Assembly (NCBI GenBank): GCA_018303025.1
Contig: JAGVYZ010000014.1
Span: 21,145-85,144, forward strand
DNA from: Candidatus Woesearchaeota archaeon
Lineage (GTDB): Archaea > Nanobdellota > Nanobdellia > SCGC-AAA011-G17 > GW2011-AR20
Length of the DNA: 64,000 nucleotides
Direction: 5' to 3'
Shown: in pieces, positions 17,218-55,284 of the stretch
Layout of the letters: every line of letters starts with the position of its first letter
Position numbering within the stretch: the stretch's first letter is position 1
Translations under genes and position numbers: made by a program
The notes under the pieces: generated by a model
What the model was told of the DNA's origin: nothing
Seen by the model: only the letters and a program-made list of their open reading frames with translations
Database searches by the model: none

Positions 17218-18513
17218 ATGAAAGTCTTGTTTGTTTACACTAATGTAGAAAAGTCGATTCAAGAACCTTTAGGCTTGGCTTATTTATCTGGGATGCTAAA
17301 ACATCATGGAATTGAAACTTTTTTATGGGACAATACTTTTGAGACAAAAGAGGACTTAAAGTTAAAATTAGAAGAGATAAATCCTGATTTTGTGGCTTTT
17401 TCATGCTTGTCTTCTGATTATGATTATATGTCTGAACTAGCACAATTTGTCAAAAGCATAAAAAATGTACCTATAATTGTTGGAGGACATCATGTTACAT
17501 TTAAACCAGAAGATGTTATAGCAAATCCATTTATTGATGTTATAATAAGAGGAGAAGGAGAGGAAACTCTTTTAGATTATGTTCAAAACCAAGATGTAAA
17601 AACATTAGGTACTTGGGTTAAAAGAGATAATGTTGTTTATATGAACCCAATGAGACAACTGCCTGATGTAAACAAGCTTCCTTGGCCAGACCATTCTATG
17701 TTTGAAAAACATTTTGAGAAAAAAGTAGTTTGGGTTAAAGATGCGCCTGTTGAAAAGTACGGAATATTCATAACTAGCAGAGGATGTCCTTTCAATTGTT
17801 TTTACTGCAGCAATAAAAGAATGCAGGATTTATATCATGGACAAAAGTTTACCAGATATAGAGATATACAAGATGTTATGAATGAACTTAAGTTTTTTAT
17901 TAAAAAATATAATTTTTCACATGTATATTTCCAAGATGAAACTTTAACAACAAATAAAGAAAGAATTTACGAATTTTGCGAGATTTACAAAAAAGAAATA
18001 GGGTTGCCATGGCATGCAGAAGCTAGAGTAGATACTGTTGATTATGATTTATTAAAAACAATGGCTGATGCTGGATGTGAGGTTTTAATGATGGGTATTG
18101 AAAGCGGAAGCGAAAGAATAAGAAAAGAACTTTTAGGAAGACATATGAGTGATGAAATGATAATAAATGCATTTCAGGATGCAAGAAAAGTAGGCATAAA
18201 AGCTTCTTCATTTAATATTTGCGGGATACCTACTGAAACTAAAGAAGATATTCTTAAGACTATTGAATTAAACAAAAAATGTAATCCGGCTATGGGAAAA
18301 ATGACTATCTTTAATGTTTTACCAGGAACTCCATTAGAAGATTATTGCAATAAAAATGGATATTATATTAGAAGGAAATTTCCAACAAATTATTATGTTG
18401 ATTCAAATATTAAGCATGAGACATTTACATTAAAAGAATTAATGGAATTTAGAAAAATGTTTGTTGAAGCAATGGGTGGTTATTCTGGCGCTACAAAAGA
18501 AGGAGAATTTTAG
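17218..18513 (+). CDS. Cobalamin-binding (class B) radical SAM enzyme
   Basis: An N-terminal B12-binding-like Rossmann domain followed by SRGCPFNCFYCSN. Confidence 0.8.
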   Translation: MKVLFVYTNVEKSIQEPLGLAYLSGMLKHHGIETFLWDNTFETKEDLKLKLEEINPDFVAFSCLSSDYDYMSELAQFVKSIKNVPIIVGGHHVTFKPEDVIANPFIDVIIRGEGEETLLDYVQNQDVKTLGTWVKRDNVVYMNPMRQLPDVNKLPWPDHSMFEKHFEKKVVWVKDAPVEKYGIFITSRGCPFNCFYCSNKRMQDLYHGQKFTRYRDIQDVMNELKFFIKKYNFSHVYFQDETLTTNKERIYEFCEIYKKEIGLPWHAEARVDTVDYDLLKTMADAGCEVLMMGIESGSERIRKELLGRHMSDEMIINAFQDARKVGIKASSFNICGIPTETKEDILKTIELNKKCNPAMGKMTIFNVLPGTPLEDYCNKNGYYIRRKFPTNYYVDSNIKHETFTLKELMEFRKMFVEAMGGYSGATKEGEF

Positions 18514-18514
18514 T

Positions 18515-19237
18515 TTACATAAACAAAACTCTTACTCTTAATCCAATTGTTTTAAAAAAATATTCAATAATTGTTTTTAACAAAATAAATCTTTTTTTCC
18601 TTTTTTGAAATATTTTACGAAAGAATTTTACTGGAATCTCCTTCATTTTTAATCCTTCTTTATTAGCTAAGACCAAAAGTTCAGTGTCCCAAAACCAATG
18701 ATGGTCATTTATTTTATCTAAAATAGGAAGAATTTTGGTTTTATTGAAAAATTTGCAGTTGGAAAGAACATCTGAAACATGCAGATTAAACAGGATTTTA
18801 ATAAAATACCTGTAAGAAATACTCAAAAAATAATTAATGTAATACCTGAAGTCTAAGTCATATTTTGAGGTTGTTCTTGATGCATTTACGATATCATATC
18901 CCTTGTTTATTTCTTCTATTAGTATTAATATTTGATAAAAAGGAATCTGCAAATCAGGGTCAATAAATCCAACAATACAGGCTTTTGCTTTTTTTATTCC
19001 ATTAGATAATGCCTTTCCTCTTCCTAATCTTTTATCAGAATGCAGATGGATTACATTTTCATATTTCTTTGATAACTTATCTGCTATCTTATCTGTACCA
19101 TCTGTGCTTCCATCTTCTGAAATAATTATTTCGTACTTGTAATTTGTTTTATTCATTACTAACTGTATTTGATGTATACCTCCTTCTAATAAATCTGATT
19201 TATTCATGCAGGGAAGAATAATGCTAACATCCATCAT
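18515..19237 (-). CDS. GT2 polyprenyl-phosphate sugar synthase (paralog of 14201..14938)
   Basis: Shares IISEDGSTDGTDKIADKLSKKY.NVIHLHSDKRLGRGK with the 14201 gene, including an identical 44-nt nucleotide core. Confidence 0.7.
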   Translation of the reverse strand: MMDVSIILPCMNKSDLLEGGIHQIQLVMNKTNYKYEIIISEDGSTDGTDKIADKLSKKYENVIHLHSDKRLGRGKALSNGIKKAKACIVGFIDPDLQIPFYQILILIEEINKGYDIVNASRTTSKYDLDFRYYINYFLSISYRYFIKILFNLHVSDVLSNCKFFNKTKILPILDKINDHHWFWDTELLVLANKEGLKMKEIPVKFFRKIFQKRKKRFILLKTIIEYFFKTIGLRVRVLFM

Positions 19238-19983
19238 CCTGATTTATATACCTCTTTTGCCATTCTAAGTGTTTCTGGTGTGCCAATATCAAACCAGATT
19301 CCATGAAAAATGAAACCCTTAACATTTACTTTTTTTTGTTTTAACAGCCATTCAATTAAATAACCGGGTCTGTCTGGATTATTGCCTTTTTCAACATAAT
19401 CTTTTATTAGATTCAAATGTTCTTTAGGAAATAAATAAAGTCCTGTTGATGCTAATGTTGTTTCTGGTTCCTTTGGTTTTTCTGTAAATTTTATAAGATT
19501 GTTATTCTTGTCTAAAGTTAATATACCAAAATTCTTTGCAAGATTTTTATTATTGAGATTAATAACACCTATTTGTATTGCTCTTTCATTTTCCAAGGTA
19601 TTAACATAATTTAACAAACTAAATTCAAAAATATTATCGCCCAATATTAAAAATAAATCATCTTTTATTTCTTTTAGTTTTATTGCATTGTATATTGCAC
19701 CGATACTTCCTAGTTTTTGCTTTTCATTTGAACTTTGTTCTATAATTAAAGTTACTTTTTTATGATAAAATGTCTCTATTTCTTTCAACCATTTTTCAAA
19801 ATGAGTTTTAAATTTAGAATTCGTTGCAACATAGATTTCATCAATGTCTTCTATATTTGAAATTCTGTCCAGAATATGGCCTAATATTGGTTTTCCGCCT
19901 ACTTTTAACAATGGCTTTGGAAAATTCTTTGTTATTGGCCACAATCTTGTTGCAAATCCTCCTGCTAAAATAAGTGCTTTCAT
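19234..19983 (-). CDS. Sugar-1-phosphate nucleotidyltransferase
   Basis: N-terminal MKALILAGGFATRLWPITKNFPKPLL nucleotidyltransferase G-loop. Overlaps 18515..19237 by 4 nt. Confidence 0.75.
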   Translation of the reverse strand: MKALILAGGFATRLWPITKNFPKPLLKVGGKPILGHILDRISNIEDIDEIYVATNSKFKTHFEKWLKEIETFYHKKVTLIIEQSSNEKQKLGSIGAIYNAIKLKEIKDDLFLILGDNIFEFSLLNYVNTLENERAIQIGVINLNNKNLAKNFGILTLDKNNNLIKFTEKPKEPETTLASTGLYLFPKEHLNLIKDYVEKGNNPDRPGYLIEWLLKQKKVNVKGFIFHGIWFDIGTPETLRMAKEVYKSG

Positions 19984-20035
19984 AATTAAAAAGCCAAATA
20001 AAAATCTATATAAAGATTGTTAATTTTCTAAAATT

Positions 20036-21199
20036 ATGGAAAAACTAGCTATAGATGGTGGAGAGCCTATAATTAAACAAAAAATTCCAATGGTTGTACC
20101 TTATTTTGATGAAAAAGAAATAGATTCTGTCGTTGAAACTATAAAGTCTACATGGATTTCTTCTAATGGCAAGAAAGGAAAAGAGCTTGAAGAAAAAATG
20201 TGTAAATATTTAGGAGTAAACCATACTATTTTAGTAAATAACTGCACATCTGCATTACATTTAGCTTTAATGATTTTGGGAATAAAATCAGGAAATGTTT
20301 TAGTACCTGATTACACATTTACCTCTACCGGGCTTGCACCAATACTAGTTAATGCTTCTCCTAAATTAGTTGATGTAGAGTATGACACTGCAAACATTGA
20401 AGTAAATCAAATTGAAAGAAGCATTGATTCTAATACTAAATGCATAATACCTGTGCATTATGCCGGACATCCATGCGAAATGGACTCTATAAACAGAATA
20501 GCTAATGAAAATGAAATTTTTGTTGTAGAAGATGCTGCTCAGGCATTAGGCTCTGAGTATAAAGGAAGGAAAGCTGGAACATTGTCCGATATTGGTTGTT
20601 TTAGTTTTCATGCTGTCAAAAATATAACTTGCGGAGAAGGCGGGGCTATTGTTACAAATGATGACAAATTAGCTGAAAAAGCTGTTATCATGCGAGACAA
20701 AGGAACAAACAAGGCTGCTTTTAATATACATCAGAACACTGGATTTTATGATTATGTTTCAGAAGGGCACAATTTCATGCTATCTGAAATTTTAGCTGCT
20801 GTTGCTTTAGAGCAATTTAAGAAAATAGACAAGATTACTGAATTGAGAAGAAAAAATGCAGATTATATGGTGAAAGAGTTAAAGAAATTAAATAATCCAA
20901 AGATAATATTGCCTACTGTAAAAAATTATGCAAATACAAACTGGCATTTGTTTCCAATAAAGTTCAAAGGAGATGTTAATTGGTTCAGCAAAGCAATGAA
21001 TGCAGAAGGAATAACTGCAAATATACATTATGTTCCATTGCATTTGACTACACTGTATAAAAAATATGGCTACAAGGAAGGGGATTTTCCAAATGCAGAA
21101 AGAGTTTTTAACAGCATGGTCAGACTGCCAATGCATCCTGGATTAACAAAAGAAGACATGGATAATATTGTGAAAGCAGTAGAGAAAGTGGCAAGATGA
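20036..21199 (+). CDS. DegT/DnrJ/EryC1-family PLP-dependent nucleotide-sugar aminotransferase
   Basis: Has the active-site block FSFHAVKNITCGEGGAI with the Schiff-base lysine retained. This argues for a transaminase and against an E1-type 3-dehydrase. Confidence 0.8.
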   Translation: MEKLAIDGGEPIIKQKIPMVVPYFDEKEIDSVVETIKSTWISSNGKKGKELEEKMCKYLGVNHTILVNNCTSALHLALMILGIKSGNVLVPDYTFTSTGLAPILVNASPKLVDVEYDTANIEVNQIERSIDSNTKCIIPVHYAGHPCEMDSINRIANENEIFVVEDAAQALGSEYKGRKAGTLSDIGCFSFHAVKNITCGEGGAIVTNDDKLAEKAVIMRDKGTNKAAFNIHQNTGFYDYVSEGHNFMLSEILAAVALEQFKKIDKITELRRKNADYMVKELKKLNNPKIILPTVKNYANTNWHLFPIKFKGDVNWFSKAMNAEGITANIHYVPLHLTTLYKKYGYKEGDFPNAERVFNSMVRLPMHPGLTKEDMDNIVKAVEKVAR

Positions 21200-22059
21200 A
21201 AGGAACAATAGGGGGGAAAGTCCAGAAATTTTACAATGAAACTCCTTTTCCAGATTATGAACTTGAAAGATTTGAAAATAAAGAACAATTGAGAATTTTA
21301 GCTTATCCTTTTGCAGAAACATTAGATAGAAGTATTCCTAAAGATGCAAGTATTATAGATGTTGGAACAGGAACAGGGCAGTTATCTGCTTTTTTATCTT
21401 TAAAGAGAAAAAATGTATGGGGTATAGACTTTTCAGATAGTTCATTAAAAAAAGCTAATGCATTAAAAGAAAAATTAAAACTAGATACATTAACATTAAA
21501 GAAAGTTAATATTCTTAATGATAATGAAATTGAAAAATTACCCAAGTTTGACTATGTCTTATGTATGGGAGTTTTGCATCATACTGGAAATCCAAAGAAA
21601 GCTTTTAGGAATATATTAAAATTATTGAAACCTAATGGAAAAATAGCAATTGGATTATACAATAAGTATGGAAGAATACCATTAAAAATAAGAATTTTTT
21701 TAGCTAAAACTATTTTTAGAAATAACCAAAAAGTAAAAGATTATTTCATTAGGTTACAGATTGGAGAAATTAAAGACAAAGAAAGAGCAAGAGGATGGTG
21801 GAATGACCAATATGAACATCCTCATGAAAGCACTCATACTATTGGAGAAGTTCTTGATTGGTTTAAGAAATATAATGTTAAATACTTGCAAACAGTCCCT
21901 AATACTAAATTCTCCAATGGTACTGATTTAGAGTGTTATGGGCTGTTTAATAAAGAGAGAAAACCAACTATAGTTCATAGAGCTTATAATCAATTAAAGT
22001 GGATTTATACTACCCATAAAGAAGGTGGATATTGGATAACTATGGGTGAGAGAAAATGA
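21196..22059 (+). CDS. Class I SAM-dependent methyltransferase
   Basis: Motif I IIDVGTGTGQL. ATGA overlap with the upstream gene. Confidence 0.65.
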   Translation: MKGTIGGKVQKFYNETPFPDYELERFENKEQLRILAYPFAETLDRSIPKDASIIDVGTGTGQLSAFLSLKRKNVWGIDFSDSSLKKANALKEKLKLDTLTLKKVNILNDNEIEKLPKFDYVLCMGVLHHTGNPKKAFRNILKLLKPNGKIAIGLYNKYGRIPLKIRIFLAKTIFRNNQKVKDYFIRLQIGEIKDKERARGWWNDQYEHPHESTHTIGEVLDWFKKYNVKYLQTVPNTKFSNGTDLECYGLFNKERKPTIVHRAYNQLKWIYTTHKEGGYWITMGERK

Positions 22060-22640
22060 AAGGAATACCTTACCTTCACCCTTTTTTATATAAACTAACT
22101 ATGAAAATTCTTAATTTGGGGCATTATAAAAAAAAATATAATTTTTTGAAAAAAGAAATAGGAGACTTAACTGTTTTAGATGTTGGTTGTGGTGATTGCG
22201 AACTTGCTAATTATATTAAGAAAGAAAATTATAGTGGATGGGATACTAATGAAATATTTGTAAAAAAGGCTATTAAAAAAGGATTAAAGGTTGAGAATAA
22301 AGATGTTAGAAATTCTAATTTTCCAAAAGTAGACTGCATTGTATTTTCAGAAGTTTTGCATCATCTTCAACCAGATTATAAAAAGATAATAAAAAAAGCT
22401 ATTGATAATTCAAAAAAAGTTATTATTATTGAACCAGTAAGTCATGTAGCATCTTCTAAAAATATAATACTTTCTTTTATGGGAAAAGCATTTAATTATA
22501 ATGGACAAAAAGATTCAGTAGTTATACCTATAGAAAAAGAAGAGCTTATTAAACTTGGGAAAGAATTTAATAGTAAGATTATAAAAACAGAGGGAAGATT
22601 ATTATTAATGGTTTTTGAAAATGGAAGAAAAAGAATTTAA
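22056..22640 (+). CDS. Small class I SAM-dependent methyltransferase
   Basis: Motif I VLDVGCGDCELA. 4-nt overlap with the upstream gene. Confidence 0.5.
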   Translation: MKGIPYLHPFLYKLTMKILNLGHYKKKYNFLKKEIGDLTVLDVGCGDCELANYIKKENYSGWDTNEIFVKKAIKKGLKVENKDVRNSNFPKVDCIVFSEVLHHLQPDYKKIIKKAIDNSKKVIIIEPVSHVASSKNIILSFMGKAFNYNGQKDSVVIPIEKEELIKLGKEFNSKIIKTEGRLLLMVFENGRKRI

Positions 22641-23292
22641 AATATATGGGCAGGAAAAAGAAGTACAGTATCTTTCACAGATTTACAGAAATATGGGAAT
22701 ATTTTTAGCTGAAAGACTTGTAAAGACTGAAATAACACCTAATTTTATTACATTTCTTGCAATATTTTTTGGTTTTGTTTCTATAGGAACATTATTATTT
22801 TTTAAAAATAATTTAGGAATAATTATTGGGGTTGCTATTTTCCAGCTGTCTTTGATTTTAGATGTTACTGATGGTTCTTTAGCAAGAAGGAAAAATATAA
22901 TTAATAAGTTTATAACATGGATGGATTATAATGCTGATGTTTTTTTAGACACTTGTGTTCTTTTTGCAGTAACTTTATCTCTTTATTTACAAACAAAAGA
23001 ACCATTAATCTTAATTTTTGGATTTTCAACAATAATTATGAAAGATTTAATTTATAATATTAGCATAGCTTTGGCAGCTACTGTAAAAGAACCTTCAAAA
23101 ATATTAGAAAAAGGACAAAAGAACTTTTTATCAAATTTTATTCCTACCAGACCTTTTATTTTTTTATCTTTGATGATATTTGCTATTTTTAATAAAGTTT
23201 ATCTTTATTTTGTCTTAATGACAATTTATCAAGTCTTTTTTTACTTTGGAACATTAGCTTACTTAAGCATAAAATTGAAGAAAAATGAATGA
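22615..23292 (+). CDS. CDP-alcohol phosphotransferase family membrane protein
   Basis: Has DVTDGSLARR...(multi-TM) consistent with the D-G-x2-A-R...D-x3-D signature. About 6 TM helices. Confidence 0.65.
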   Translation: MKMEEKEFKIYGQEKEVQYLSQIYRNMGIFLAERLVKTEITPNFITFLAIFFGFVSIGTLLFFKNNLGIIIGVAIFQLSLILDVTDGSLARRKNIINKFITWMDYNADVFLDTCVLFAVTLSLYLQTKEPLILIFGFSTIIMKDLIYNISIALAATVKEPSKILEKGQKNFLSNFIPTRPFIFLSLMIFAIFNKVYLYFVLMTIYQVFFYFGTLAYLSIKLKKNE

Positions 23293-23950
23293 AATAAGCA
23301 AAGTAGATTATTATGGAAAAAGGGAAGTTGTAGAAAATTATTTTGAAAGAAGATATGGCAATAATAGCGGGAAGCTTATCAATAAAAGAGAATTATATGC
23401 TGTTAAATCTTTACTTCCGGGAAAAGGAAAAATTTTGGATGTTGCCTGCGGAACAGGCAGATTGGGCATGATTCTAAATAGAAATTTTGAAGTTACTGGT
23501 GTAGACACTTCAAAAGAGATGCTAAAAATATGCCCTTATAAAAATAAAATAATTGGAAGCGCTGAAAAATTACCTGTAAAAGATAAATATGATATTGTTG
23601 TTGCCTTAAGGTTCTTTTTTCATTATGAAGATATTGAACCTTTTTTAAAAGAATTCAAGAGGGTTTCTAAAAAGAATGGGTTTATCATCTTTGAAACATA
23701 TTCCTGGAGTCCAAGAAGCATAATTAATATAAAAAGCCTCGGAGGAAAAATATATTCTCATAACCATAAGAAAATTTTAGAAATATTAAACAAACTTGAT
23801 TTAAAACTTATTGAGAAAAGAAGAATATTCCTTTTTTCACCTTTTGTGCAAAAAAAACTGCCATTTTTTATTCTTAAATTTATTACTAAAATAGAAGAAA
23901 AACTTCCTGATAAATTTAAAATGGACTGCTATTGGAAAGTTCAAGTTTGA
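23285..23950 (+). CDS. Class I SAM-dependent methyltransferase
   Basis: Motif I ILDVACGTGRLG. Overlaps the upstream gene. Confidence 0.65.
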   Translation: MNEISKVDYYGKREVVENYFERRYGNNSGKLINKRELYAVKSLLPGKGKILDVACGTGRLGMILNRNFEVTGVDTSKEMLKICPYKNKIIGSAEKLPVKDKYDIVVALRFFFHYEDIEPFLKEFKRVSKKNGFIIFETYSWSPRSIINIKSLGGKIYSHNHKKILEILNKLDLKLIEKRRIFLFSPFVQKKLPFFILKFITKIEEKLPDKFKMDCYWKVQV

Positions 23951-25431
23951 AACAAGCAAACATCATTTATTTGTTTTAGTTTCTTTAAATTGCAAAATTC
24001 TAATGTATTGCAATTGTCATTTTGAGTAATAATATGTGTTGTATTAACATAATTAAGATTTTCAGTTATTGCCTCACAATTTTTTTCATTTAATAACTGA
24101 TTTATTGCTTTAAATTTTTTAACATACTCTGCATCTTTTTCAGAATAAGACCAGCCACCAGAAGTTGAAAGATTTAAAAAAATTGGGGCATAAGAATAAT
24201 AAGCATTTGAATAAGAAGTTGTGCTGTTAATTCCAAAAATAACAAACTTGCTGTCTTTTGGAAGCTCTTCTAGTAAACTTAAAATATTATTTTCTAAAGG
24301 CGTATGGTCTACAAAATAAGGTGTATGAACTGCATTTGCTATGATGCTTAAGACAGCAAAGAAGATTATACCTAAAATAATTATTTTTTTAATCCAAGAT
24401 TTATACAAATTAAAATCTATTTTTAACAAATAGTAAACTATAAAGAAAATAAGCAGGGTTATAACTGAATCAGGATAAACTTTATCTAAGATAGGCAAGA
24501 AGGCAGTTATTCTGAATAAAAATAAAATAGTTAAAATTAATATTGGTAAAAAAAAGATGAATTCTTTCTTAATTCTATTTTTATAAAAATACAGGAAAGA
24601 AATGACTAGTAAGACAATAGGTATAATAATTCCTACAATGTTCGTTAAGAGCCATTGACCAGAAAATTCTAATGATCTTGTTCCCATTGAATAGTTTAAT
24701 ATTGAATTATTTTTTAATTGAAGTAAATAATTAAACCACCAGAATGAAGACAATATTAAGCCGAGAATCATTAAAAAAATCATTTTTATCTTATCTGCTT
24801 TGTTAATGACTAGAAATAATCCAAAAAGCATGATATGCGCCAGGATTATTGTCACTGGATGTGAAATCATTAAAATAGTGTAAAAAATTATAAAGATTAT
24901 ATAAAAAAACTTGTCTAGTTTTTTGTTTACATATTCTATGCTTAAGAAAAATAAGGGGATAAAGATTACCCAGCTAAACAGTTCTGACATTCTTCCAAGC
25001 CTTATGAAATCACCTATTGACATGGGGTTTGCGAAAACAAACAGGAAAAAGACAACAGAATAAAGAAAAGAAAATCCCTGCATTTTTCCAAATTTGTAAA
25101 TCATGTAAAAACCAATCACTAAAAGAATGATAAGAGAAAGATATGTTGCTAAAAGAATATTGTTTAGTAATAAATAAATTGGATATGTGAAAAAAGCCCA
25201 GCCAGGCGTATAAGAACTAAAAGTAGTATAGCCATGATACCAATAAGGGCAGATTTGATGAAAACCACAGTCTTTTAAGAAAAATAGCATAGCCATATGT
25301 CCACTATAATCATTGACTGTATCTAATGGAAAAACGGTTATTAATTTTGATTGATTAATTAACCGAAATAAAAGATTAATGAATAGAATTAAAGCTGACA
25401 ACCACAAATACTTTTTAGGAATAGTCTTCAT
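23941..25431 (-). CDS. Polytopic membrane protein, possibly a GT-C-like or glycan polymerase/ligase-like enzyme
   Basis: 496 aa with more than 10 TM helices plus a C-terminal extracytoplasmic domain. No confident family. Confidence 0.45.
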   Translation of the reverse strand: MKTIPKKYLWLSALILFINLLFRLINQSKLITVFPLDTVNDYSGHMAMLFFLKDCGFHQICPYWYHGYTTFSSYTPGWAFFTYPIYLLLNNILLATYLSLIILLVIGFYMIYKFGKMQGFSFLYSVVFFLFVFANPMSIGDFIRLGRMSELFSWVIFIPLFFLSIEYVNKKLDKFFYIIFIIFYTILMISHPVTIILAHIMLFGLFLVINKADKIKMIFLMILGLILSSFWWFNYLLQLKNNSILNYSMGTRSLEFSGQWLLTNIVGIIIPIVLLVISFLYFYKNRIKKEFIFFLPILILTILFLFRITAFLPILDKVYPDSVITLLIFFIVYYLLKIDFNLYKSWIKKIIILGIIFFAVLSIIANAVHTPYFVDHTPLENNILSLLEELPKDSKFVIFGINSTTSYSNAYYSYAPIFLNLSTSGGWSYSEKDAEYVKKFKAINQLLNEKNCEAITENLNYVNTTHIITQNDNCNTLEFCNLKKLKQINDVCLFQT

Positions 25432-25482
25432 AAAAAGGTTAAATAGGTTTATTTTAAATAACTTTAGTTTTTTATTATAAAT

Positions 25483-26583: not shown

Positions 26584-26623
26584 AAGAAGCCTTTTTAAAA
26601 AAGCCTTCGGGGAAAATAAAAAA

Positions 26624-28510: not shown

Positions 28511-28545
28511 ATATTTTACAAGATAATAAGGTTTAAATAGCTAAT

Positions 28546-28564
28546 GGTATGAACAGTTCATACC
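28546..28564. promoter_or_regulatory. Perfect 19-bp palindrome GGTATGAAC-A-GTTCATACC, a candidate operator for the adjacent RHH-domain protein
   Basis: Read directly in the divergent intergenic region. It abuts the ATG of the GHMP kinase gene and lies 36 nt from the start of the RHH-fusion gene. Confidence 0.5.
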
Positions 28565-30312: not shown

Positions 30313-30313
30313 A

Positions 30314-31360
30314 ATGTCAGAGATATATTTAGGTTTTGGAGAGAAATTAACAATTGAACAAGGAAAAGAAGGAAGAACTTTTTCATTATATTTGCCTGGC
30401 AAACCAGAAGTTAGTACAAAAGAAATAAAACCAAATCCTCATGTTTGGCTTAAAAAAATAGAGGAATTGAGAAGAACAGGAAGTGTAGAAATCTCTGGAA
30501 ATGAAACACCTGTTGTAACACATTCTGCTGGTTCAATTTCTGTTTTTTATGAAAATGGAGAAAGAAAATATGTATCTTTTTCTCAAAAAGATGAAAGTGC
30601 ACCAAGAGATCCTGGATTTAGGGTTCCGAGAAATGGATTTCCCAGTAATTCTGGAGAGTGGTTTACAAATAGACATTTATATAGAGAAAGTTGGGAAGAA
30701 GGAATCTTTTTAACAGAAGATGGAAGATTAGTCTTGCCAAAGAGTCCTATATACGATTATATAATAAAAAATGTTGCAAAAAGAATAGTAGAACAAACTG
30801 GTTTAAAGATTCGAGGAAGTAAAAGAACAAAGATAAATTTTGAAAATGGAAAAGATACGCTCGAAATTTTTTATGGACCTGAAAAAAAATGCATGTTATT
30901 TGATTATGGGGCAATTAGTTGGACACCTGAAACTGGTTTTAATTTTATAAAAGAAATGGCCGTTTATGCTCCCATCTCTGATTTAAGATTAATTGATGGA
31001 GAAACATTTCCAGATGGAAAGGTAATTGGAAGAGACATATGTATTATTGATTTAGAACAGTTGCAGGGAAAAACATTTGGAGATGAAATAGAAGAAGAAG
31101 TTCATTCTTTTAGGGATGGAAAATTTGTAAGAACAAAACGAAATTCTAGATTTTTAACCGACAGAGTACCAAGATCATTCTTAAGCTCATTAATATATAA
31201 AGGAAAACCAGTTTATCCTGCTGATGCTATTGATGAAGCTTATGCATTTGTTTCAGATGAACAGGTATTAAGAACATTTGATGAACATGAAGCCAAAGGA
31301 GAAGATCCAAATAAGTTTAAATGGTCCACTTTAGAAAGAAAATTAAGATTAGGGGAATAA
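30314..31360 (+). CDS. Hypothetical soluble protein, unknown function, inside the sugar-activation operon
   Basis: 348 aa with no TM helices. R/G/E-rich composition unlike its neighbours. Separated by only 1 nt from the upstream gene and abuts the downstream GT2. Confidence 0.5.
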   Translation: MSEIYLGFGEKLTIEQGKEGRTFSLYLPGKPEVSTKEIKPNPHVWLKKIEELRRTGSVEISGNETPVVTHSAGSISVFYENGERKYVSFSQKDESAPRDPGFRVPRNGFPSNSGEWFTNRHLYRESWEEGIFLTEDGRLVLPKSPIYDYIIKNVAKRIVEQTGLKIRGSKRTKINFENGKDTLEIFYGPEKKCMLFDYGAISWTPETGFNFIKEMAVYAPISDLRLIDGETFPDGKVIGRDICIIDLEQLQGKTFGDEIEEEVHSFRDGKFVRTKRNSRFLTDRVPRSFLSSLIYKGKPVYPADAIDEAYAFVSDEQVLRTFDEHEAKGEDPNKFKWSTLERKLRLGE

Positions 31361-32236: not shown

Positions 32237-32270
32237 AAAGCATTTTAAATTAGAATATTTTTAGTTATTT

Positions 32271-33803: not shown

Positions 33804-33871
33804 TTAAATTTCCAGAATATATAACTAAACAGACTAAAAGTTTATAAATACTATAAGGAATATTTTAAAAA

Positions 33872-35838: not shown

Positions 35839-35859
35839 AGATTTATACTAAGAATATTT

Positions 35860-36978
35860 TTATTTTTCAAACAATCGTTTTATACTTTCTTTATCATATC
35901 TTAATGAATTTAATAAATTACATTGATGAGTACAAACACATGATTTTGTTTTATTTCTTATTTCATTTGCTTTGTCGCTTGTCCATAATTTATGAAAATC
36001 CCATCCAAAATCATTTAAATTAGCAAAAGGTTTTGTAAACTCGCAAATGCTGACATCACCACTAGGGTAAACTATTGCATCAACATAACCTGCTGTGCAG
36101 TTCATGAATCTTTTTTTCTCATCTAAAACCCTGATAAAATAATCATTGACTAATTCTATTGATTTTGATAATAAATGAGAATCTCCTTTATCCATCTTCT
36201 TGACTAATTCTTGTAGTTTAAGCATTTCTTCTTTTGATAAAACATTATCAGAGCTATCAAAATCACTTAGAATATTCTTATCGATATTGAAAACATGCTG
36301 GCTTGCGCTTCGGACAAACTGGATTCCATGAAAAACGTTTAGTTTTTTTGTTTCTTCTATAAAAGATTCAATATATGGATAATTTTTCTTAGAAACAGTT
36401 GTGGAAATGCTTAAACTTAATTTTGGATTTTTTATTTGCTTCAATTTATTCAGTGTTTCTATAGCCTTTTTATACGTACCTTTTACACCTCTTATTTTAT
36501 CATGAACTTCTTCTGGGCCGTCCAAAGATATTTGAACAGCTACATCTAAATTTGTTTTATTTAGAATTTCCTTTACTTTTTGGAAAATTATATCGGGCAA
36601 TGTCCCATTTGTAGCTAAAATTATTTTTTTTGTTCTTGCCTTATCTAATAAAATGCAGATTTCAACTATGTCTTTTCTGAGAAATGTTTCTCCGCCTGTC
36701 AAAACAACTGAAATTAATGGATTTTTTAAACTTTGGACTAATTTTTTTATGTCTTCTAAAGAGGTTTTTTCTTCTTTGTTTAAATGACCTGCATAAAAGC
36801 AATGACTGCATTTTAAATTACAATTGTCTGTTAAAAACAAGTTAATAATAATGGGTGTTTTTGCGCTATTTTTTTCTTTTAGAACTGAATAATAAACTAA
36901 TTCTAAAGAAAGATTCTTCAGAGGACTAGGCAGATTCTTTATTATTTTATACGCCTTTTCTCTTAAGTTAGATTTCAT
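35860..36978 (-). CDS. Radical SAM enzyme with a C-terminal SPASM/twitch auxiliary-cluster domain (BtrN/anSME-like)
   Basis: CxxxCxxC at TDNCNLKCSHCFY. C-terminal Cys-rich CTAGY...CEF...CVCTHQC. Confidence 0.75.
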   Translation of the reverse strand: MKSNLREKAYKIIKNLPSPLKNLSLELVYYSVLKEKNSAKTPIIINLFLTDNCNLKCSHCFYAGHLNKEEKTSLEDIKKLVQSLKNPLISVVLTGGETFLRKDIVEICILLDKARTKKIILATNGTLPDIIFQKVKEILNKTNLDVAVQISLDGPEEVHDKIRGVKGTYKKAIETLNKLKQIKNPKLSLSISTTVSKKNYPYIESFIEETKKLNVFHGIQFVRSASQHVFNIDKNILSDFDSSDNVLSKEEMLKLQELVKKMDKGDSHLLSKSIELVNDYFIRVLDEKKRFMNCTAGYVDAIVYPSGDVSICEFTKPFANLNDFGWDFHKLWTSDKANEIRNKTKSCVCTHQCNLLNSLRYDKESIKRLFEK

Positions 36979-37948
36979 TTTTTATAAAATCTGGATTTTC
37001 TCTTCTTATTCTTAATGTTTCAGCCAGATGCATTAAATTCCACCAATAGGCTTTAAGTAAGTTTCTATAAGAATAAATTACCAAAATCAATATTTTTTTT
37101 ATTTTTCCACAATCTTTCTTTTTTTGACTTTTATCAAGCCAAGCGACTTTTTCCAATGGTTTTTGTGAAAATTCCTTTATTCTTGCTGGAAGCAATTTAA
37201 ATGCATAATAAATATCAATTAAGGGAAGGAAAATCAGGAAATAGAATTTTTCTTTTTTTATTAGAAATCTGATACGATTTTTGTGAAAGAGGAAAAAATT
37301 AGAAGTTCTGCCTGTGTTTGAAACATGATGATAAGCTGCAATTTTATCATCCATAATGCATTTTAAACCCTTTTTTCTTACTCTCCATCCAAGATCATTG
37401 TCTTCATATCCATAAATGTAATATGGGTCAAAACCACCCAGTTCTTTTAACAAAGATAAAGGCATAATACAATTAGAAGTAGGAACATAATCTGTTTCTT
37501 TCATTTTTAAACTGTCAAACCAGGAGAATAAACCATCTCCATTTCTTTCACTATTGCCCAGCCTGATTTTTCCATTAATTATTTCTCCACCTAGCTGTCC
37601 AATTTTTTTTCTTTCATTTGATTCCATTAGATTTAACATTAATTGCAATGTATTTTCTGATTTAAGTTCTGCATCTGAATCTAGAAATAAAACATATTTT
37701 GACGTTATAATCCTTAATGCTTGGTTTCTTGCTTCACTTGCACCAATATTGGAACTATTTAAAATAAGTTTTAGCCTTGAATTTAATTTTTGTTTTAAAT
37801 TTTTTAAAAATTCTCTTGTACCATCTTTGCTTCCATTATCTACTATGATTATTTCATAATCTTCATAATTTTGAGATAAAATGCTATTAATGCACCTCTC
37901 TAAATCATCTTTTCTGTTAAAAGAAGGTATTACTATGCTTAAATTCAT
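36968..37948 (-). CDS. Glycosyltransferase family 2
   Basis: Starts MNLSIVIPSFNR and has a DxD at FLDSDAE. Confidence 0.7.
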   Translation of the reverse strand: MNLSIVIPSFNRKDDLERCINSILSQNYEDYEIIIVDNGSKDGTREFLKNLKQKLNSRLKLILNSSNIGASEARNQALRIITSKYVLFLDSDAELKSENTLQLMLNLMESNERKKIGQLGGEIINGKIRLGNSERNGDGLFSWFDSLKMKETDYVPTSNCIMPLSLLKELGGFDPYYIYGYEDNDLGWRVRKKGLKCIMDDKIAAYHHVSNTGRTSNFFLFHKNRIRFLIKKEKFYFLIFLPLIDIYYAFKLLPARIKEFSQKPLEKVAWLDKSQKKKDCGKIKKILILVIYSYRNLLKAYWWNLMHLAETLRIRRENPDFIKNEI

Positions 37949-37949
37949 T

Positions 37950-38657
37950 TTAGTCTAAAAAACGATACTTTAACAAGTAATATAAAGCTTTCATTCCGTC
38001 TTTCCAAGTAATCTTTTTGCCTTCATCAAATTTTCTAGGGCTATAAGTTATTGGGACTTCTTTTATTTTCATGCCTTTTTTTAGAAATTTAGCAGTTATT
38101 TCCGGCTCAAAATCAAATCTTGTTGCTTTTAATTTAATATTGTTTAATGCTTCTTTCTTAAAAACTTTATAGCCTGTTTCCATATCTGTTATTTTTGAAA
38201 AAAACAGCAACTGAGTAATAAAACTTAAGAATTTATTTCCAATAAAGTGCAAAGGAAGGATTGTTGACTTTGTTTTAAATTTGCTAGTTAGATTAAAACC
38301 CATAAACCTAGAACCATAAACAACAGATGTTTCATTAGACAATATTGGTTTTAATAGAGAAGGATAATCTTCTGGTGAATATTCCAAATCTGCATCTTGT
38401 ATTAAAATAATATCTCCTGTTGCTTCTTTAAGACCTGTTTTAATTGCTGAACCCTTACCTTTATTTTTTGGATGAAATAGAACAATATATTTCTTAGTAT
38501 ACTTTTTTAATAATTCTCTTGTACCATCCTTAGAAAAATCATCTATGAGGATTATCTCTTTTTTTATATTCTTTAATTCAATTTTTTCTATTCTTGAGAT
38601 TATCTCTTCAATTGTTTCTTTCTCATTATAAATGGGTATTATGATTGATAGTTTCAT
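37950..38657 (-). CDS. GT2 polyprenyl-phosphate sugar synthase (DPM1-like)
   Basis: Starts MKLSIIIPIYNEKETIEEII and has the DxD LIQDADLEYSPED. Separated by 1 nt from the upstream gene. Confidence 0.75.
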   Translation of the reverse strand: MKLSIIIPIYNEKETIEEIISRIEKIELKNIKKEIILIDDFSKDGTRELLKKYTKKYIVLFHPKNKGKGSAIKTGLKEATGDIILIQDADLEYSPEDYPSLLKPILSNETSVVYGSRFMGFNLTSKFKTKSTILPLHFIGNKFLSFITQLLFFSKITDMETGYKVFKKEALNNIKLKATRFDFEPEITAKFLKKGMKIKEVPITYSPRKFDEGKKITWKDGMKALYYLLKYRFLD

Positions 38658-38667
38658 TTTAACATAA

Positions 38668-40056
38668 TTAGTTTAGTAACCACCTAAAAACTCTTTTAAA
38701 AACATATTTTGCATGATTAAATGAATTTATAGAACTTATAAAATCAATAACAATTTTAGGCCTAAAGTAAAATTTTATTAGTGCCTTTCTTCTGAGAAAT
38801 TTTAATTGCTTAAGTGTAATTCCTCTTGGAGAATAAGCAACGGTATTTAGGGCAAAATTTTCCCATTTTAGGTCTTTATTTTTTAATTCTTCCATGATTC
38901 TTGAACTAGCTTCTGTTCCTGGAAACGGCTTGAAGGTCATGAAGCTTGCCCTTTTTAGAGGAAGTGAGCAAGCAAAGCCTATTGTTTCATCAATATCTTT
39001 TATTGTTTCATCTGGATAACCTAAAATAAAAAAACCTACTGTATCCAAGCCTGCCTTATCCAGCATATTTAATTTTTCTCGGATAATTTCTTTGGACAGA
39101 CTCTTTTTCATGATTTTAAGGATTCTATCAGAACCAGACTCGATGCCTACGCTAACTGTATACAATCCTGTCTTTTTCATTAATTTTACAAGTTCTAAGT
39201 CTAACGAGTCTAAACGAATGCCATTTGGGCAAGCCCAGGTAATGTCTAATCTTCTTTTTATTAATTCATTACAAAAATCAATAACAAATTCTCTTTTTAA
39301 TGAAAAGTTATCATCTTCAATATGAATTTCATTTATACCATATTGCTTGTGCAATAATTCTATTTCATCTACAAAATTTTTAACAGACCTGTATCTTATT
39401 CTCCTTCCTGATATTAAAAATCCAGCACAGAAAGTACAGTGATAAGGACAACCGCGAGTTGCAAAAACAGGTGCTGTAGGCATTCTTTTAAAGAATGCGC
39501 CGTGCGGTGCTTGGGGATATGTATCTGGTTTAAGAAGATCCCAACTTGGATTCTTTAATTCATCTAAATTTTCTATGAACCTTTGTTGATTAACCTTTAT
39601 TTTGGATTTATCTTTCCAAATTAAAGAGGGAATTTGCTCTAATTTTATTTTCTTACCTGAAATATTGTCCATTAAGGCAGGAAATCCAATTTCTGCTTCT
39701 CCTTTGAATCCAAAATCTGCATGCAAATAATTAAAAATGTCTTTTATATTAGAAGAGGGTTCTGGACCTCCAACAATAATAATTATATCCTTATTAATAA
39801 TTCTTGAAAGATTTATCATCTCTTTTACAGTATGCTTATCAAAAGTATAGCATTGAATGCCTATAACATCATAATTTTCTTTTTCAAGCTCATCTTTAAA
39901 TTTCTGCAATGTTAATTTTTCTTTTATACCATCAATTATGGTTACATCGTGCTTATCTCTGACTGCTGTTGCCAAGTAACCCAAACCTAAAGGTGGCTGA
40001 ATTTCATCAGTAACTGAAAATGGCTTGATTAATAATATTTTTAATTTTTTATTCAT
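38668..40056 (-). CDS. Cobalamin-binding (class B) radical SAM enzyme
   Basis: A B12-binding-like N-terminal domain followed by TRGCPYHCTFCAG. Confidence 0.8.
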   Translation of the reverse strand: MNKKLKILLIKPFSVTDEIQPPLGLGYLATAVRDKHDVTIIDGIKEKLTLQKFKDELEKENYDVIGIQCYTFDKHTVKEMINLSRIINKDIIIIVGGPEPSSNIKDIFNYLHADFGFKGEAEIGFPALMDNISGKKIKLEQIPSLIWKDKSKIKVNQQRFIENLDELKNPSWDLLKPDTYPQAPHGAFFKRMPTAPVFATRGCPYHCTFCAGFLISGRRIRYRSVKNFVDEIELLHKQYGINEIHIEDDNFSLKREFVIDFCNELIKRRLDITWACPNGIRLDSLDLELVKLMKKTGLYTVSVGIESGSDRILKIMKKSLSKEIIREKLNMLDKAGLDTVGFFILGYPDETIKDIDETIGFACSLPLKRASFMTFKPFPGTEASSRIMEELKNKDLKWENFALNTVAYSPRGITLKQLKFLRRKALIKFYFRPKIVIDFISSINSFNHAKYVFKRVFRWLLN

Positions 40057-40074
40057 AATTTCTCCGTAGTAAAT

Positions 40075-40905
40075 TTATAGTTTTAGAATATTATTTAAAT
40101 CTTTCTTCAGATCAGAAGAGATTTTACAAGGATTATTTTTTAAAATGCTTATCCTATCAATATCTAAACCATCTACATCAAAGGGCAAGATTATCTTAAA
40201 GAATTTCAACAAAAACATAGGAATGTGTACTTTAATGCACCAAGAATTGCTTTTTTCAGCCAAATAATTGCTTATTTCATTTAATGAAATTGTTGTTTTA
40301 CCAGATAAATCAAATGTTGATTTTGCTTTGAAATGTTCAACAAGAAAAACAACTGTTTTAGCAATATCCTGTTTATTAACTGGTTGAATATTTGTATTTC
40401 CCCTGCCATATATTGGGCAAATATGCATATTTTTTATTATTATGCTTAATTTGTAAAAGTCATTTTCCTTATCAATACCATATACATAGTTAGGTCTTAA
40501 AATAATGTAATTTAAATTACTATTAACCAAAAGTTTTTCACATAATTTTTTTGAGTTACCATAAGGCCCTGTTTTTTTAAGATAAACATTCTGAGTTGAA
40601 AAATAAATTATATTTGTTATTTTATTTAATTTCATGGATTCTAAGGTATTACTTAGACCTATAATATTTTGATTATATTTTGATTTTTTTATTGTTCTTA
40701 TTACTGCAGCTAGATAGATAATTAAATCAAAGCCTTTGATTTTTTTTATTAACTCTTCTTTGTTTAAAATATTGCAAGAAATAACATCTTTTTTAACTGA
40801 TCTTGATAATATTGTTACATTATAGTTTTTACTAATTAATTCTTTAACAATTTCCTTTCCGATATAACCGGAACCACCTATAACCAAAATTCTCTTATTT
40901 GCCAT
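40075..40905 (-). CDS. NAD(P)-dependent epimerase/dehydratase (SDR)
   Basis: N-terminal ILVIGGSGYIGKEIV Rossmann motif and YGNSK catalytic dyad. Confidence 0.65.
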   Translation of the reverse strand: MANKRILVIGGSGYIGKEIVKELISKNYNVTILSRSVKKDVISCNILNKEELIKKIKGFDLIIYLAAVIRTIKKSKYNQNIIGLSNTLESMKLNKITNIIYFSTQNVYLKKTGPYGNSKKLCEKLLVNSNLNYIILRPNYVYGIDKENDFYKLSIIIKNMHICPIYGRGNTNIQPVNKQDIAKTVVFLVEHFKAKSTFDLSGKTTISLNEISNYLAEKSNSWCIKVHIPMFLLKFFKIILPFDVDGLDIDRISILKNNPCKISSDLKKDLNNILKL

Positions 40906-42215
40906 TTTAAAAATTTGAATAAGTATGAGATTCTAAAATAATAATTTCTATATGCTTTATCCAGTAATTTTTGCACTTGTTTTGGAGAGAAATTGTTATG
41001 TCTGTAAACTAAATTAAACTGTGTATATTTCTCAAAATCATAAGTTAATATTCTGTTTTCTTTTTCCAATTGATTAAAAAAACCAGTTCCAGGATATGGT
41101 GTTGAAACTGAAAATCTAGCTATTAAGGTGTTTAATTTTTTTGCATAATTTATAGTATTTTTTACTGTTTCCTCAGTATCGCCTTCATATCCTAAAATAT
41201 AAAATGCTGAAATTTTTACACCAATTTTTTCACAAAATTTTATGATATTCTCCTGATGATTTTTTTGTATTAAAAGTCGTTTATTTTTTTTTGCTATATT
41301 AATATCGTTGGTTTCAATGCCTACATTGATATTTCTTAAGCCAACTTCAAACATTTTTTTAATTTTTTCTTCGTTTAGCAAGTCTAATCTTGTTTCCATG
41401 CCCCATTTAATGTTTACATATGTTTCTTTTAATTCTTTACAAAAATCTTCAATAAAATTAGGAATTAATCCAAATGTTGGATCTCTAAATTGGATTCCTT
41501 TTATATTATACTTTTTTTGCAAATAAACTATGTCCTTTACAATCTTTTTAACAGATCTTAATCTTACTTTAGAACCTTGATATTCGCCATAAGTACAATA
41601 AAATCTACAACTATAAGGGCAGCCTCGACTTGCTTGTAAAACTAAGAATGGTTTTTGTTTTATTGCTGGAAAATAACTATAACTGTTTATTGGAAAATTA
41701 TCAAAAGAAGGTAAAGGAAGATCATCTAAATCTATTTTTTCAGAAACAGTTATATGACCCTGCAATTGATTTTCACTTTTAAATTTGTATATAAAAAAAT
41801 ACTCTGATTCCCCACAAATGTTGAAATCTCCTGATTTGAACAAATCAGGCTTTATTTTTACAAATGGGCCAAAAAATCCAATTTTTGATTTAGGAAATGT
41901 TTTTTTTAAGACCTGACAGACTTTATTTTCGTTTTTGTAATCAACAATAGTACCATAGATTAAAATCAAATCAAAATATGTTTCAGGCAATTTACCTTCA
42001 AAATAACTTACTTCATAGCCTTTTTCTTTAAAAATCTCCTGTAAATAAGCTATTTCTATAACTGGTAATTTAATTGAATTTTTTTTGATAAATCTTAAAA
42101 TTTTGGATGTAAATGAATAACCATAATCATCTGCAGTCCCAAAACCACCATTTAGGTCTTTATTCATTGCAAAATTTTTACTTTTATTCATTACATTAAT
42201 CAATGCTATTTTCAT
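40878..42215 (-). CDS. Cobalamin-binding (class B) radical SAM enzyme
   Basis: Radical SAM cysteine motif SRGCPYSCRFYC. The N-terminal half is consistent with a B12-binding domain. Confidence 0.75.
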   Translation of the reverse strand: MKIALINVMNKSKNFAMNKDLNGGFGTADDYGYSFTSKILRFIKKNSIKLPVIEIAYLQEIFKEKGYEVSYFEGKLPETYFDLILIYGTIVDYKNENKVCQVLKKTFPKSKIGFFGPFVKIKPDLFKSGDFNICGESEYFFIYKFKSENQLQGHITVSEKIDLDDLPLPSFDNFPINSYSYFPAIKQKPFLVLQASRGCPYSCRFYCTYGEYQGSKVRLRSVKKIVKDIVYLQKKYNIKGIQFRDPTFGLIPNFIEDFCKELKETYVNIKWGMETRLDLLNEEKIKKMFEVGLRNINVGIETNDINIAKKNKRLLIQKNHQENIIKFCEKIGVKISAFYILGYEGDTEETVKNTINYAKKLNTLIARFSVSTPYPGTGFFNQLEKENRILTYDFEKYTQFNLVYRHNNFSPKQVQKLLDKAYRNYYFRISYLFKFLKWQIREFWL

Positions 42216-42243
42216 TTTTTTATCCTTTTATTAATTAAATAGT

Positions 42244-44022: not shown

Positions 44023-44023
44023 T

Positions 44024-49049: not shown

Positions 49050-49211
49050 ATGTCACACAATAAATCAATAATATTAGAATTTTGGGATTTTTTAAAAATA
49101 AGAAAAAAATGGTGGCTATTGCCAATAATTATAATGCTAATATTGGTAGGCGTATTAATAGTATTTGGGCAAAGTTCAGCTATTAGTCCATTTATTTATG
49201 CTTTAATTTAA
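49050..49211 (+). CDS. Small single-TM protein of the type commonly found next to NodU-family carbamoyltransferases (DUF5989-like)
   Basis: 53-aa ORF I translated by hand: MSHNKSIILEFWDFLKIRKKWWLLPIIIMLILVGVLIVFGQSSAISPFIYALI. It is below the ORF-track size cutoff. Confidence 0.4.
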   Translation: MSHNKSIILEFWDFLKIRKKWWLLPIIIMLILVGVLIVFGQSSAISPFIYALI

Positions 49212-52878: not shown

Positions 52879-52899
52879 TATGTTATTTTTTATATTATC

Positions 52900-53775: not shown

Positions 53776-53780
53776 TTTAG

Positions 53781-55169: not shown

Positions 55170-55284
55170 GGCAGAAGGTTAAAGGTAACTATTCCAGATT
55201 AAAATGGGAAAAGTTTAATTAGCTTTTTTTCTTTTTTATGTGTAACCTATTCATGATATGGGGACATATTTTTCTCTTTTTTTA

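Follow-up and report, generated by a model that had tools for sequence, protein, structure and literature searches.

A 64,000-nucleotide stretch of a Candidatus Woesearchaeota contig (JAGVYZ010000014.1, positions 21,145 to 85,144; hereafter the window, in whose own numbering all coordinates are given) encodes five radical S-adenosylmethionine (rSAM) proteins within a glycan-biosynthesis island that spans 727 to ~52000. Our best reading is that a modular cassette in this island deoxygenates, and probably C-methylates, one carrier-linked sugar. That the window is a surface-glycan island of a DPANN-type archaeon, with rSAM enzymes tailoring the sugars and a core cassette at 37950-44022, is a proposal to which we give an even chance. 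The five rSAM open reading frames (ORFs) lie at 6832-8412 and 17218-18513 on the plus strand and at 35860-36978, 38668-40056, and 40878-42215 on the minus strand, as recorded in an earlier note on this DNA, and Pfam Radical_SAM matches all of them at 54-91 bits. The span given in that note, 17218-42215, leaves out the 6832 gene that it had itself counted. As radical SAM genes make up roughly 1-2% of archaeal genes, five among the 54 window ORFs of at least 150 amino acids (aa) are far above expectation. The assignment of these enzymes to glycan biosynthesis holds, each having conserved glycosylation neighbors in other genomes, and relatives likewise have glycosylation loci with several rSAM genes (five each in L014, L021, and L070, four in L017, and four in 15 kb in L009). 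None of the five has a transmembrane helix, and a cytoplasmic site of action is therefore expected.

The protein encoded at 40878-42215 (445 aa), which had been counted as one of four cobalamin-dependent enzymes, is central to the proposal. Pfam detects only Radical_SAM in it, with no B12-binding match at E≤0.01, and its cluster motif, GCPYSCRFYC, is of the form CX3CX3C (C199/C203/C207). This spacing is kept in 120 of its 120 closest homologs (50-100% identity), and a precomputed PF02310 B12-binding match is present in 2 of the 120 best homologs of 40878 versus 120 of 120 for those of 6832. By phmmer, the best solved relative is AprD4 (6FD2, E 7e-28), with GCPYSCRFYC aligned to GCPYPCRFYC. The AlphaFold2 (AF2) model of 40878 (predicted local distance difference test score [pLDDT], 92.9) matches 6FD2 in Foldseek over its full length, with template-modeling (TM) scores of 0.81/0.80 (E 7.5e-27, 456 aligned columns), while the second-best fold match, the B12 enzyme QCMT/MgmA (9CCB), reaches a TM score of only 0.60. 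The two also have in common an N-terminal Rossmann-like domain without a B12 signature, and AprD4 binds no cobalamin (PMC12931638, a 2026 review). From motif, sequence match, and modeled fold, 40878 is very probably AprD4-type, and it is probably cobalamin-free. With its CX3CX3C motif and no B12-binding match, it leaves three probable cobalamin enzymes, not four. AprD4 catalyzes a 1,2-diol dehydration, and the NADPH-dependent AprD3 then reduces the keto product, the outcome being C3' deoxygenation of paromamine (PMC5461906). By analogy, we propose that 40878 is a sugar 1,2-diol dehydratase.

A reductase that could play the part of AprD3 is encoded next to it. The minus-strand gene at 40075-40905 encodes an extended-type short-chain dehydrogenase/reductase (SDR; 276 aa, Pfam Epimerase 72.8 bits) and overlaps 40878 by 28 nt. 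Among 23 orthologous loci with at least 50% identity to 40878, an SDR of the 40075 type is directly beside the rSAM gene in 13, overlapping its stop by ~25 nt in 11 of these, and another SDR is nearby in 3 more. The overlap probably reflects translational coupling. At least 90% of 12 SDR orthologs retain, among other residues, the GGxGxxG motif, R35 (which follows the second strand), and the catalytic S/T-Y-K set (S103/T104, Y115, and K119). By these features, 40075 has the appearance of an active oxidoreductase of the NAD(P)-dependent kind, and we propose it as the NAD(P)H-dependent keto-reductase partner of 40878. The gene layout described earlier, with 38668 and 40878 flanking an SDR in a minus-strand operon that also has GT2 and GT-C glycosyltransferase genes, is borne out; the stand-alone epimerase role then given to the SDR is not, a reductase partner being likelier. 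The 40878/40075 pair thus appears to mirror the AprD4/AprD3 deoxygenation pair in having an adjacent NAD(P)-type reductase gene and a sugar context. The window SDR, an extended protein of the epimerase type, is likened to AprD3 by gene position and proposed role. An AprD4-type enzyme with an SDR resembling a reductase partner points to deoxygenation, not to a fourth methylation.

The pair belongs to a minus-strand operon (46981 to 35860) whose genes overlap or are at most 28 nt apart. By Pfam, it opens with an AglH/WecA/MraY-family polyprenyl-phosphate sugar-1-phosphate transferase (45989-46981), a Wzx-type flippase (44721-46001), a small GT2 (44024-44764), and a PMT_2/ArnT-like GT-C glycosyltransferase with ~10 transmembrane helices (42244-44022, PMT_2 74.7 bits). 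After 40878 and its SDR come a class B, B12-domain rSAM of 462 aa (38668-40056; B12-binding 61.5 bits, Radical_SAM 89.2 bits) and a small soluble GT2 of 235 aa (37950-38657; Pfam GT2 129.6 bits). The NCBIfam scores of the last (AglJ 122, ArnC 65, and PpgS 59 bits) are all below cutoff. A further GT2 and the rSAM at 35860 close the operon.

Comparison with other genomes shows that the core of this operon recurs as a unit. The most constant neighbor of 40878 relatives is the 37950-type small soluble GT2 (44-63% identity, across phyla including Prochlorococcus), which adjoins the rSAM gene in most loci with a glycosylation context, archaeal and bacterial. A B12 rSAM gene adjoins the rSAM/SDR pair in about a dozen loci, and the B12 rSAMs found beside AprD4-like genes cluster with 38668 (single linkage, at least 36% identity). 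In L008, a 38668 ortholog (52% identity) adjoins the GT2 37950 ortholog. The grouping of GT2, AprD4-like enzyme, SDR, and 38668-type B12 rSAM is present in DPANN archaea, in bacteria of the candidate phyla radiation (CPR), and in proteobacteria; in the Falkowbacteria loci L006 and L024, genes for a GT2, the rSAM, the SDR, a B12 rSAM, a PMT_2 protein, and a carbamoyltransferase follow one another consecutively. A separate observation concerns the metagenome assembly L002, which encodes an identical 40878 protein and in which the 38668 ortholog (5160-6549) is called as pieces of 87 aa and 352 aa, through either a frameshifted variant or an assembly error.

The archaeal TARA contig L069 (488-8128) provides a natural with/without comparison to window 35860-46981. 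Five operon genes are present in window order, and the trio of AprD4-like enzyme, SDR, and B12 rSAM is absent. Orthologs on this contig are those of AglH (64% identity), the flippase (43%), GT2 44024 (50%), GT-C 42244 (32%), GT2 37950 (57%), GT2 36968 (47%), rSAM 35860 (52%), and a carbamoyltransferase (67%). With no trio between them, the GT-C ortholog is directly beside the 37950-type GT2, so that the trio of the window occupies precisely the junction of the GT-C and small GT2 genes.

From the observed domain content, motifs, fold match, gene order, and neighborhood conservation, we infer the catalytic steps, substrate, lipid-linked timing, and acceptor of the following route. GT2 37950 would load a hexose or N-acetylhexosamine onto dolichyl or polyprenyl phosphate. 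The 5'-deoxyadenosyl radical of 40878 would then abstract a hydrogen from the sugar, with elimination of the neighboring hydroxyl, a 1,2-diol dehydration that would give a keto-deoxy sugar. Reduction of the ketone by SDR 40075 with NAD(P)H would complete a net deoxygenation, and the class B rSAM 38668 would probably add a C-methyl group to the same sugar via methylcobalamin. After flipping, GT-C 42244 would transfer the finished sugar to an acceptor outside the membrane. The other rSAMs would serve separate modules: 17218 an Arn-like amino-deoxy-sugar module, 6832 one for a CDP-sugar and/or a CMP-phosphonate, and 35860 one with GT2 36968. We consider a sequence of deoxygenation followed by methylation to be evenly balanced between true and false, and a lipid-linked substrate to be somewhat doubtful. 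The setting also differs from that of AprD4, an enzyme of an actinomycete antibiotic pathway whose substrate is a free pseudodisaccharide, whereas 40878 is encoded between a GT2 resembling polyprenyl-phosphate-sugar synthases and a GT-C, in envelope glycan clusters that occur in archaea and many bacteria.

Sequence databases gave 670 matches to 40878 at E≤1e-10, and a scan of one genome per GTDB species yielded 54 loci with relatives. These loci come from DPANN archaea, Falkowbacteria, Saccharibacteria, Latescibacterota, Bacteroidota, Omnitrophota, proteobacteria, Prochlorococcus, and Planctomycetota. Tentatively, and with less than even confidence, we suggest that a mobile, oxygen-sensitive cassette (GT2, AprD4-type rSAM, SDR, and class B rSAM) is common to DPANN archaea, CPR bacteria, and several further phyla (Prochlorococcus and marine proteobacteria among them), and that it deoxygenates and C-methylates a polyprenyl-phosphate-linked sugar before a GT-C places it on the surface. 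Sugar tailoring by rSAM enzymes is established in antibiotic pathways and here appears to have been recruited, as a mobile cassette, into envelope glycans. No paper in the literature searched placed AprD4-like enzymes among cell-surface glycan genes, or in DPANN archaea or CPR bacteria. Four loci from Prochlorococcus single-cell genomes (L039-L042) encode AprD4-like rSAMs at 41-42% identity; at three of them a 37950-type small GT2 adjoins the rSAM gene, and at two a carbamoyltransferase does. An oxygenic phototroph is an unexpected place for an oxygen-sensitive enzyme.

The remaining B12-type proteins fit the class B description. PF02310 (cutoff, 32.1 bits) covers nearly its full model in 6832 (57.5 bits), 17218 (81.5 bits), and 38668, and all three have CX3CX2C motifs (CPHRCNFC at 214, CPFNCFYC at 190, and CPYHCTFC at 203, respectively). 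For these three, cobalamin binding is probable, and methyl transfer plausible, as judged from sequence. Methylation is the commonest chemistry of class B rSAM enzymes, whose sugar-acting members include GenK, GenD1, MoeK5, and Fms7 (reviews, PMC12931638 among them). The C-methylation proposed earlier for all four proteins is accordingly a reasonable default for the three with a B12 domain and does not extend to 40878, whose AprD4 type points to deoxygenation. Like GenK, GenD1, Fms7, MoeK5, and Fom3, the three combine a B12-binding domain with a CX3CX2C rSAM core in sugar-modification clusters; the likeness is at the level of class only, and the context here is a primary cell-envelope glycan, not an antibiotic. 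A check for the cobalamin-binding motif DxHxxG, suggested in the earlier note, found it in none of the five proteins. This outcome is uninformative for the class, because the solved B12-rSAM structures bind cobalamin base-off with no protein His ligand (PMC12931638). The pairwise identity of 6832, 17218, and 38668 is 26-28%, which makes them three subfamilies, not recent paralogs; with 40878 included, mutual identity is 26-32%, and the description of the four as paralogs gives way to distinct subfamilies.

For 6832, a more specific role has to be weighed. The gene for this 526-aa protein (Radical_SAM 54.7 bits) heads a plus-strand run and is followed there by genes for a GT4 (8450-9634), a glucose-1-phosphate cytidylyltransferase-like protein (9666-10376, 238 bits), and a CDP-glucose 4,6-dehydratase-like protein (10367-11350, 226 bits). 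It lies 2.5 kb from the plus-strand phosphonate genes at 727-4271, which could supply its substrate. These encode a Fom1-like fusion of cytidylyltransferase and phosphoenolpyruvate (PEP) mutase (416.6 bits; cutoff, 319.55), phosphonopyruvate decarboxylase (Ppd, 503.5 bits; cutoff, 312.5), and a PsrA-type Fe-alcohol dehydrogenase (198 bits, below cutoff). As annotated, the set points to a glycan or lipid decorated with CMP-activated 2-hydroxyethylphosphonate. A Fom3-like 6832 would C-methylate this CMP-activated 2-hydroxyethylphosphonate, after which the CDP-alcohol phosphotransferase 22615 would attach a (hydroxypropyl)phosphonate head group to glycan or lipid. The fusion and Ppd above cutoff, together with the Fe-alcohol dehydrogenase, favor such a role, Fom3 being reported to methylate cytidylyl-2-hydroxyethylphosphonate. 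Further support comes from L073 (187-1522), where a 66% ortholog of 6832 is directly beside orthologs of 22615 (45%) and of methyltransferase 23285 (54%) and a ferredoxin of 82 aa. On the other side, PEP mutase, like Ppd and the Fe-alcohol dehydrogenase, is absent from 5 of the 5 homolog contexts examined, the operon of 6832 consists of GT4 and CDP-glucose genes, a flippase gene and an opposite-strand GDSL gene separate it from the phosphonate genes, and its scores to NCBIfam P-methyltransferases are no higher than those of other rSAMs. With neighbor evidence so mixed, a Fom3-like role on a CMP-activated head group remains a minority possibility, which we think unlikely; it concerns one gene and is compatible with the deoxygenation cassette. 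In the window, the phosphotransferase (22615-23292), with five transmembrane helices, lies between three class I methyltransferases (21196-23950).

Several observations weigh against the deoxygenating and methylating cassette. Identity of 40878 to AprD4 over the structural alignment is only ~20%, and its score to the NCBIfam AprD4 family (NF033070) is 126.3 bits versus a cutoff of 500 bits. No SDR lies within 10 kb in 7 of the 23 orthologous loci (bacterial loci outside Latescibacterota, such as those of Chitinophagaceae, Bacteriovoracaceae, and Omnitrophota, plus L017), and AprD3 may belong to an SDR subclass other than that of 40075. None of the five rSAMs reaches any curated NCBIfam cutoff, so that none can be named by equivalog and every function is an assignment from likeness; the best scores of the B12-domain proteins, to BchE, HpnJ, ApyD, and BzaD, are 135-176 bits, far under the cutoffs. 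Class B enzymes also carry out nonmethylating reactions, as in BchE, OxsB, and HpnJ, and the 64-kb window has no cobalamin uptake or salvage genes. Gene adjacency is the sole ground for lipid-linked timing, and a nucleotide-sugar substrate, modified before the GT2 step, is equally possible. Finally, 40878 scores slightly higher to NCBIfam HpnJ (149.5 bits, residues 81-437) than to AprD4. Part of this distance is bridged by planctomycete proteins that have the same CX3CX3C motif and score 245-250 bits to NCBIfam AprD4; with 126 bits against the 500-bit cutoff and such intermediate kin, 40878 is best placed in a sister family, not among AprD4 equivalogs.

The HpnJ score raises the question of whether 40878 instead contracts or otherwise remodels a lipid-linked amino-sugar ring to yield a unit like a cyclitol or furanose, with the SDR acting in a separate redox or epimerization step. 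HpnJ is the proposed ring-contraction enzyme for a lipid sugar attached by a GT2, bacteriohopanetetrol glucosamine (review), which offers a parallel to the conserved small GT2 beside 40878, and HpnJ is the top NCBIfam match of 40878. The HpnJ scores of the four B12-like proteins, 139-149 bits, are far under the 577.6-bit cutoff, and that of 40878 is unspecific, because HpnJ is also among the top matches (139 bits) of the other three. Reviews group HpnJ with B12-dependent enzymes, whereas 40878 has no B12 domain. No hopanoid genes are present in the window, and no HpnJ structure is among the fold matches of 40878. We therefore regard an HpnJ-like reaction as quite unlikely and prefer an AprD4-type dehydration.

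The reading given in the earlier note was that all four B12-like proteins are cobalamin C-methyltransferases, the SDR an epimerase, the product a heavily C-methylated or branched glycan, and 35860 a BtrN-like sugar dehydrogenase. It has in its favor three clear B12-binding domains, the prevalence of methylation in class B with the sugar-acting examples named above, and the location of all the rSAMs among glycosylation genes. It is improbable in view of the missing B12 domain, the CX3CX3C motif, and the sequence and fold match to cobalamin-free AprD4 of 40878, of the SDR being a conserved overlapping partner, and of the affinities of 35860. BtrN is absent from the phmmer matches of 35860 in the Protein Data Bank (PDB) and from its top 50 Foldseek matches. 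The fold neighbors of its AF2 model (pLDDT, 92.1) are SkfB, BlsE, SuiB, MoaA, anSME, and viperin, at TM scores of ~0.55-0.6.

The SPASM/twitch label given to 35860 (372 aa, minus strand, Radical_SAM 83.6 bits) survives in part. The protein is twitch-like, with five conserved cysteines: an alignment of 23 homologs shows no variation at C294, C312, C347, or C349, while C353 is retained by 90% or more. Its SPASM score of 20.7 bits is under the 21.5-bit cutoff, and the seven-cysteine SPASM motif, CX9-15GX4C ... CX2CX5CX3C ... C, is not present. The auxiliary-cluster domain appears to be a shortened one, with the arrangement CX12GX4C + CXCX3C. The rSAM core and CX12GX4C C-terminal cysteine motif are thus like those of SkfB, BlsE, anSME, BtrN, and MoaA; the differences are that CXCX3C replaces CX2CX5CX3C, that the structural similarity is limited to the TM scores above, and that the protein is paired or fused with a GT2. 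In the window, this partner is the 326-aa GT2 at 36968-37948 (minus strand, GT2 115.9 bits), which overlaps the start of 35860 by 11 nt. A GT2 of ~320 aa adjoins 35860 relatives in L069, where the 36968 ortholog is directly upstream of the 35860 ortholog, and in L071, and it is fused to the relative in P0292. This recurrence suggests that 36968 is a conserved partner of the SPASM-type rSAM.

That the rSAMs modify the lipid carrier, membrane lipids, or proteins in the manner of QCMT or Mmp10 and are merely located in the island is highly improbable: NCBIfam matches do include a lipid-acting ladderane enzyme, HpnR, and HpnJ, and the protein methylase QCMT ranks second among the PDB matches of 38668 and first among those of 6832, but the lipid-family scores are far below cutoff, each rSAM has conserved sugar-handling neighbors (SDR, DegT aminotransferase, nucleotidyltransferase, and GT2), and one 35860 relative is the GT2 fusion just described.

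The class B rSAM 17218 (431 aa, Radical_SAM 90.6 bits) belongs to a rare subfamily, with kin at 41% identity or more in only 5 clusters among 1.8 billion representatives. By Pfam, its minus-strand neighbors are a GT-C (12533-14170), a small GT2 (14201-14938), an SDR (14942-15916), a second small GT2 (18515-19237), and a sugar-1-phosphate nucleotidyltransferase (19234-19983), along with an ORF (16017-17051) that has no Pfam or NCBIfam family. On the plus strand, a DegT aminotransferase (20036-21199, Pfam and NCBIfam) scores 331 bits to dTDP-4-amino-4,6-dideoxygalactose transaminase (cutoff, 375) and 263 bits to ArnB. A metagenome scan for 17218 yielded 4 loci, of which L065 is informative: a 67% ortholog is flanked there by orthologs of small GT2 14201 (54%) and DegT aminotransferase 20036 (62%), with fused orthologs of SDR 14942 and nucleotidyltransferase 19234 beside it. 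In L066, BLAST against the window proteins found no recognizable glycosylation neighbors. The position of 17218 in an Arn-like amino-deoxy-sugar module makes it plausible that the enzyme methylates an amino sugar, as GenK and GenD1 do.

The general organization recalls the Arn (ArnB/ArnC/ArnT) and Gtr systems, which attach a sugar to polyprenyl phosphate, flip it across the membrane, and pass it on through a GT-C. The likeness consists of four small GT2s (14201, 18515, 37950, and 44024), three PMT_2-type GT-Cs (12533, 32271, and 42244), and the DegT protein with its ArnB match; the difference is that the family matches in the window are weak. To our knowledge, the Arn and Gtr systems described so far contain no radical SAM tailoring enzymes. 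With the oligosaccharyltransferase AglB encoded nearby, the glycan may be N-linked, but the three ArnT/PMT-like GT-C enzymes could serve other acceptors.

An AprD4 sister family in cell-surface glycan clusters across both prokaryotic domains would have several consequences if our reading is right. Radical sugar tailoring of a kind known only from aminoglycoside pathways would be a widespread route to deoxy or branched envelope sugars, and AprD4 would no longer be isolated among rSAM dehydratases. The route to deoxy and C-methyl sugars would be cofactor light and strictly anaerobic, and genome-reduced organisms would depend on cobalamin for their surface glycans. Unusual sugars would be predicted on the surfaces of DPANN archaea and CPR bacteria, which mediate host attachment, and the enzymes would be tractable new subjects for rSAM enzymology and glyco-engineering.

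The remainder of the island fits its assignment to a DPANN-type archaeon of low G+C content (~28% across the whole window). Archaeal markers are AglB/STT3 (49208-51949, minus strand, STT3 45.6 bits), which flanks the operon, the AglH/MraY-family transferase at 45989-46981, a form III RuBisCO adjoining an aIF2B-like protein, and an Rpb7-like RpoE. The nearest kin of the window proteins are in metagenome-assembled genomes (MAGs) of Woesearchaeota, Nanoarchaeota, and Pacearchaeota and in CPR bacteria. Several metagenomes have contigs with an identical 40878 gene, and the best genome match among GTDB representative contigs, which do not include the source genome, is a Woesearchaeota MAG at 67% identity. 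Besides GT2, GT4, and GT-C transferases, the island encodes two Wzx-type flippases, five sugar-1-phosphate nucleotidyltransferases, SDR dehydratase/epimerases, the DegT aminotransferase, a GHMP kinase, the class I methyltransferases and CDP-alcohol phosphotransferase noted above, a NodU/TobZ-type carbamoyltransferase, and the phosphonate module.

The NodU/TobZ-type O-carbamoyltransferase (47277-49007, plus strand; Carbam_trans_N 291 bits, Carbam_trans_C 243 bits) flanks the operon, and at 8 loci a gene of this type occurs close to an AprD4-like gene; carbamoylation may be a further modification of the tailored glycan. Recurrences of this enzyme were seen in L017, L020, L024, L033, L040, L042, L045, L060, and L069, the L069 protein having a fused GDSL domain that resembles window ORF 5785-6780.

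Beside AglB, at 52042-56808, are genes for a SpoIIM-like membrane protein, the aIF2B-like protein, which is likely a ribose-1,5-bisphosphate isomerase, and the form III RuBisCO. The same synteny is present in L008 (6971-15061), and the two together link the AMP-salvage RuBisCO pathway to the glycosylation island. In addition to 16017-17051, the ORFs at 23941-25431, 30314-31360, and 58160-59086 have no significant Pfam or NCBIfam family. The first of these, 23941-25431, encodes a protein with 11 transmembrane helices, a 36% homolog of which adjoins AglB in L008; because of these two features, it is possibly an unrecognized GT-C or polymerase. Two further genes are unrelated to these findings: 56865-57794, whose product combines a lamin-tail domain with a hydrophobic segment at its N terminus, and 53781-55169, which encodes an archaeal ATPase/DUF234 protein.

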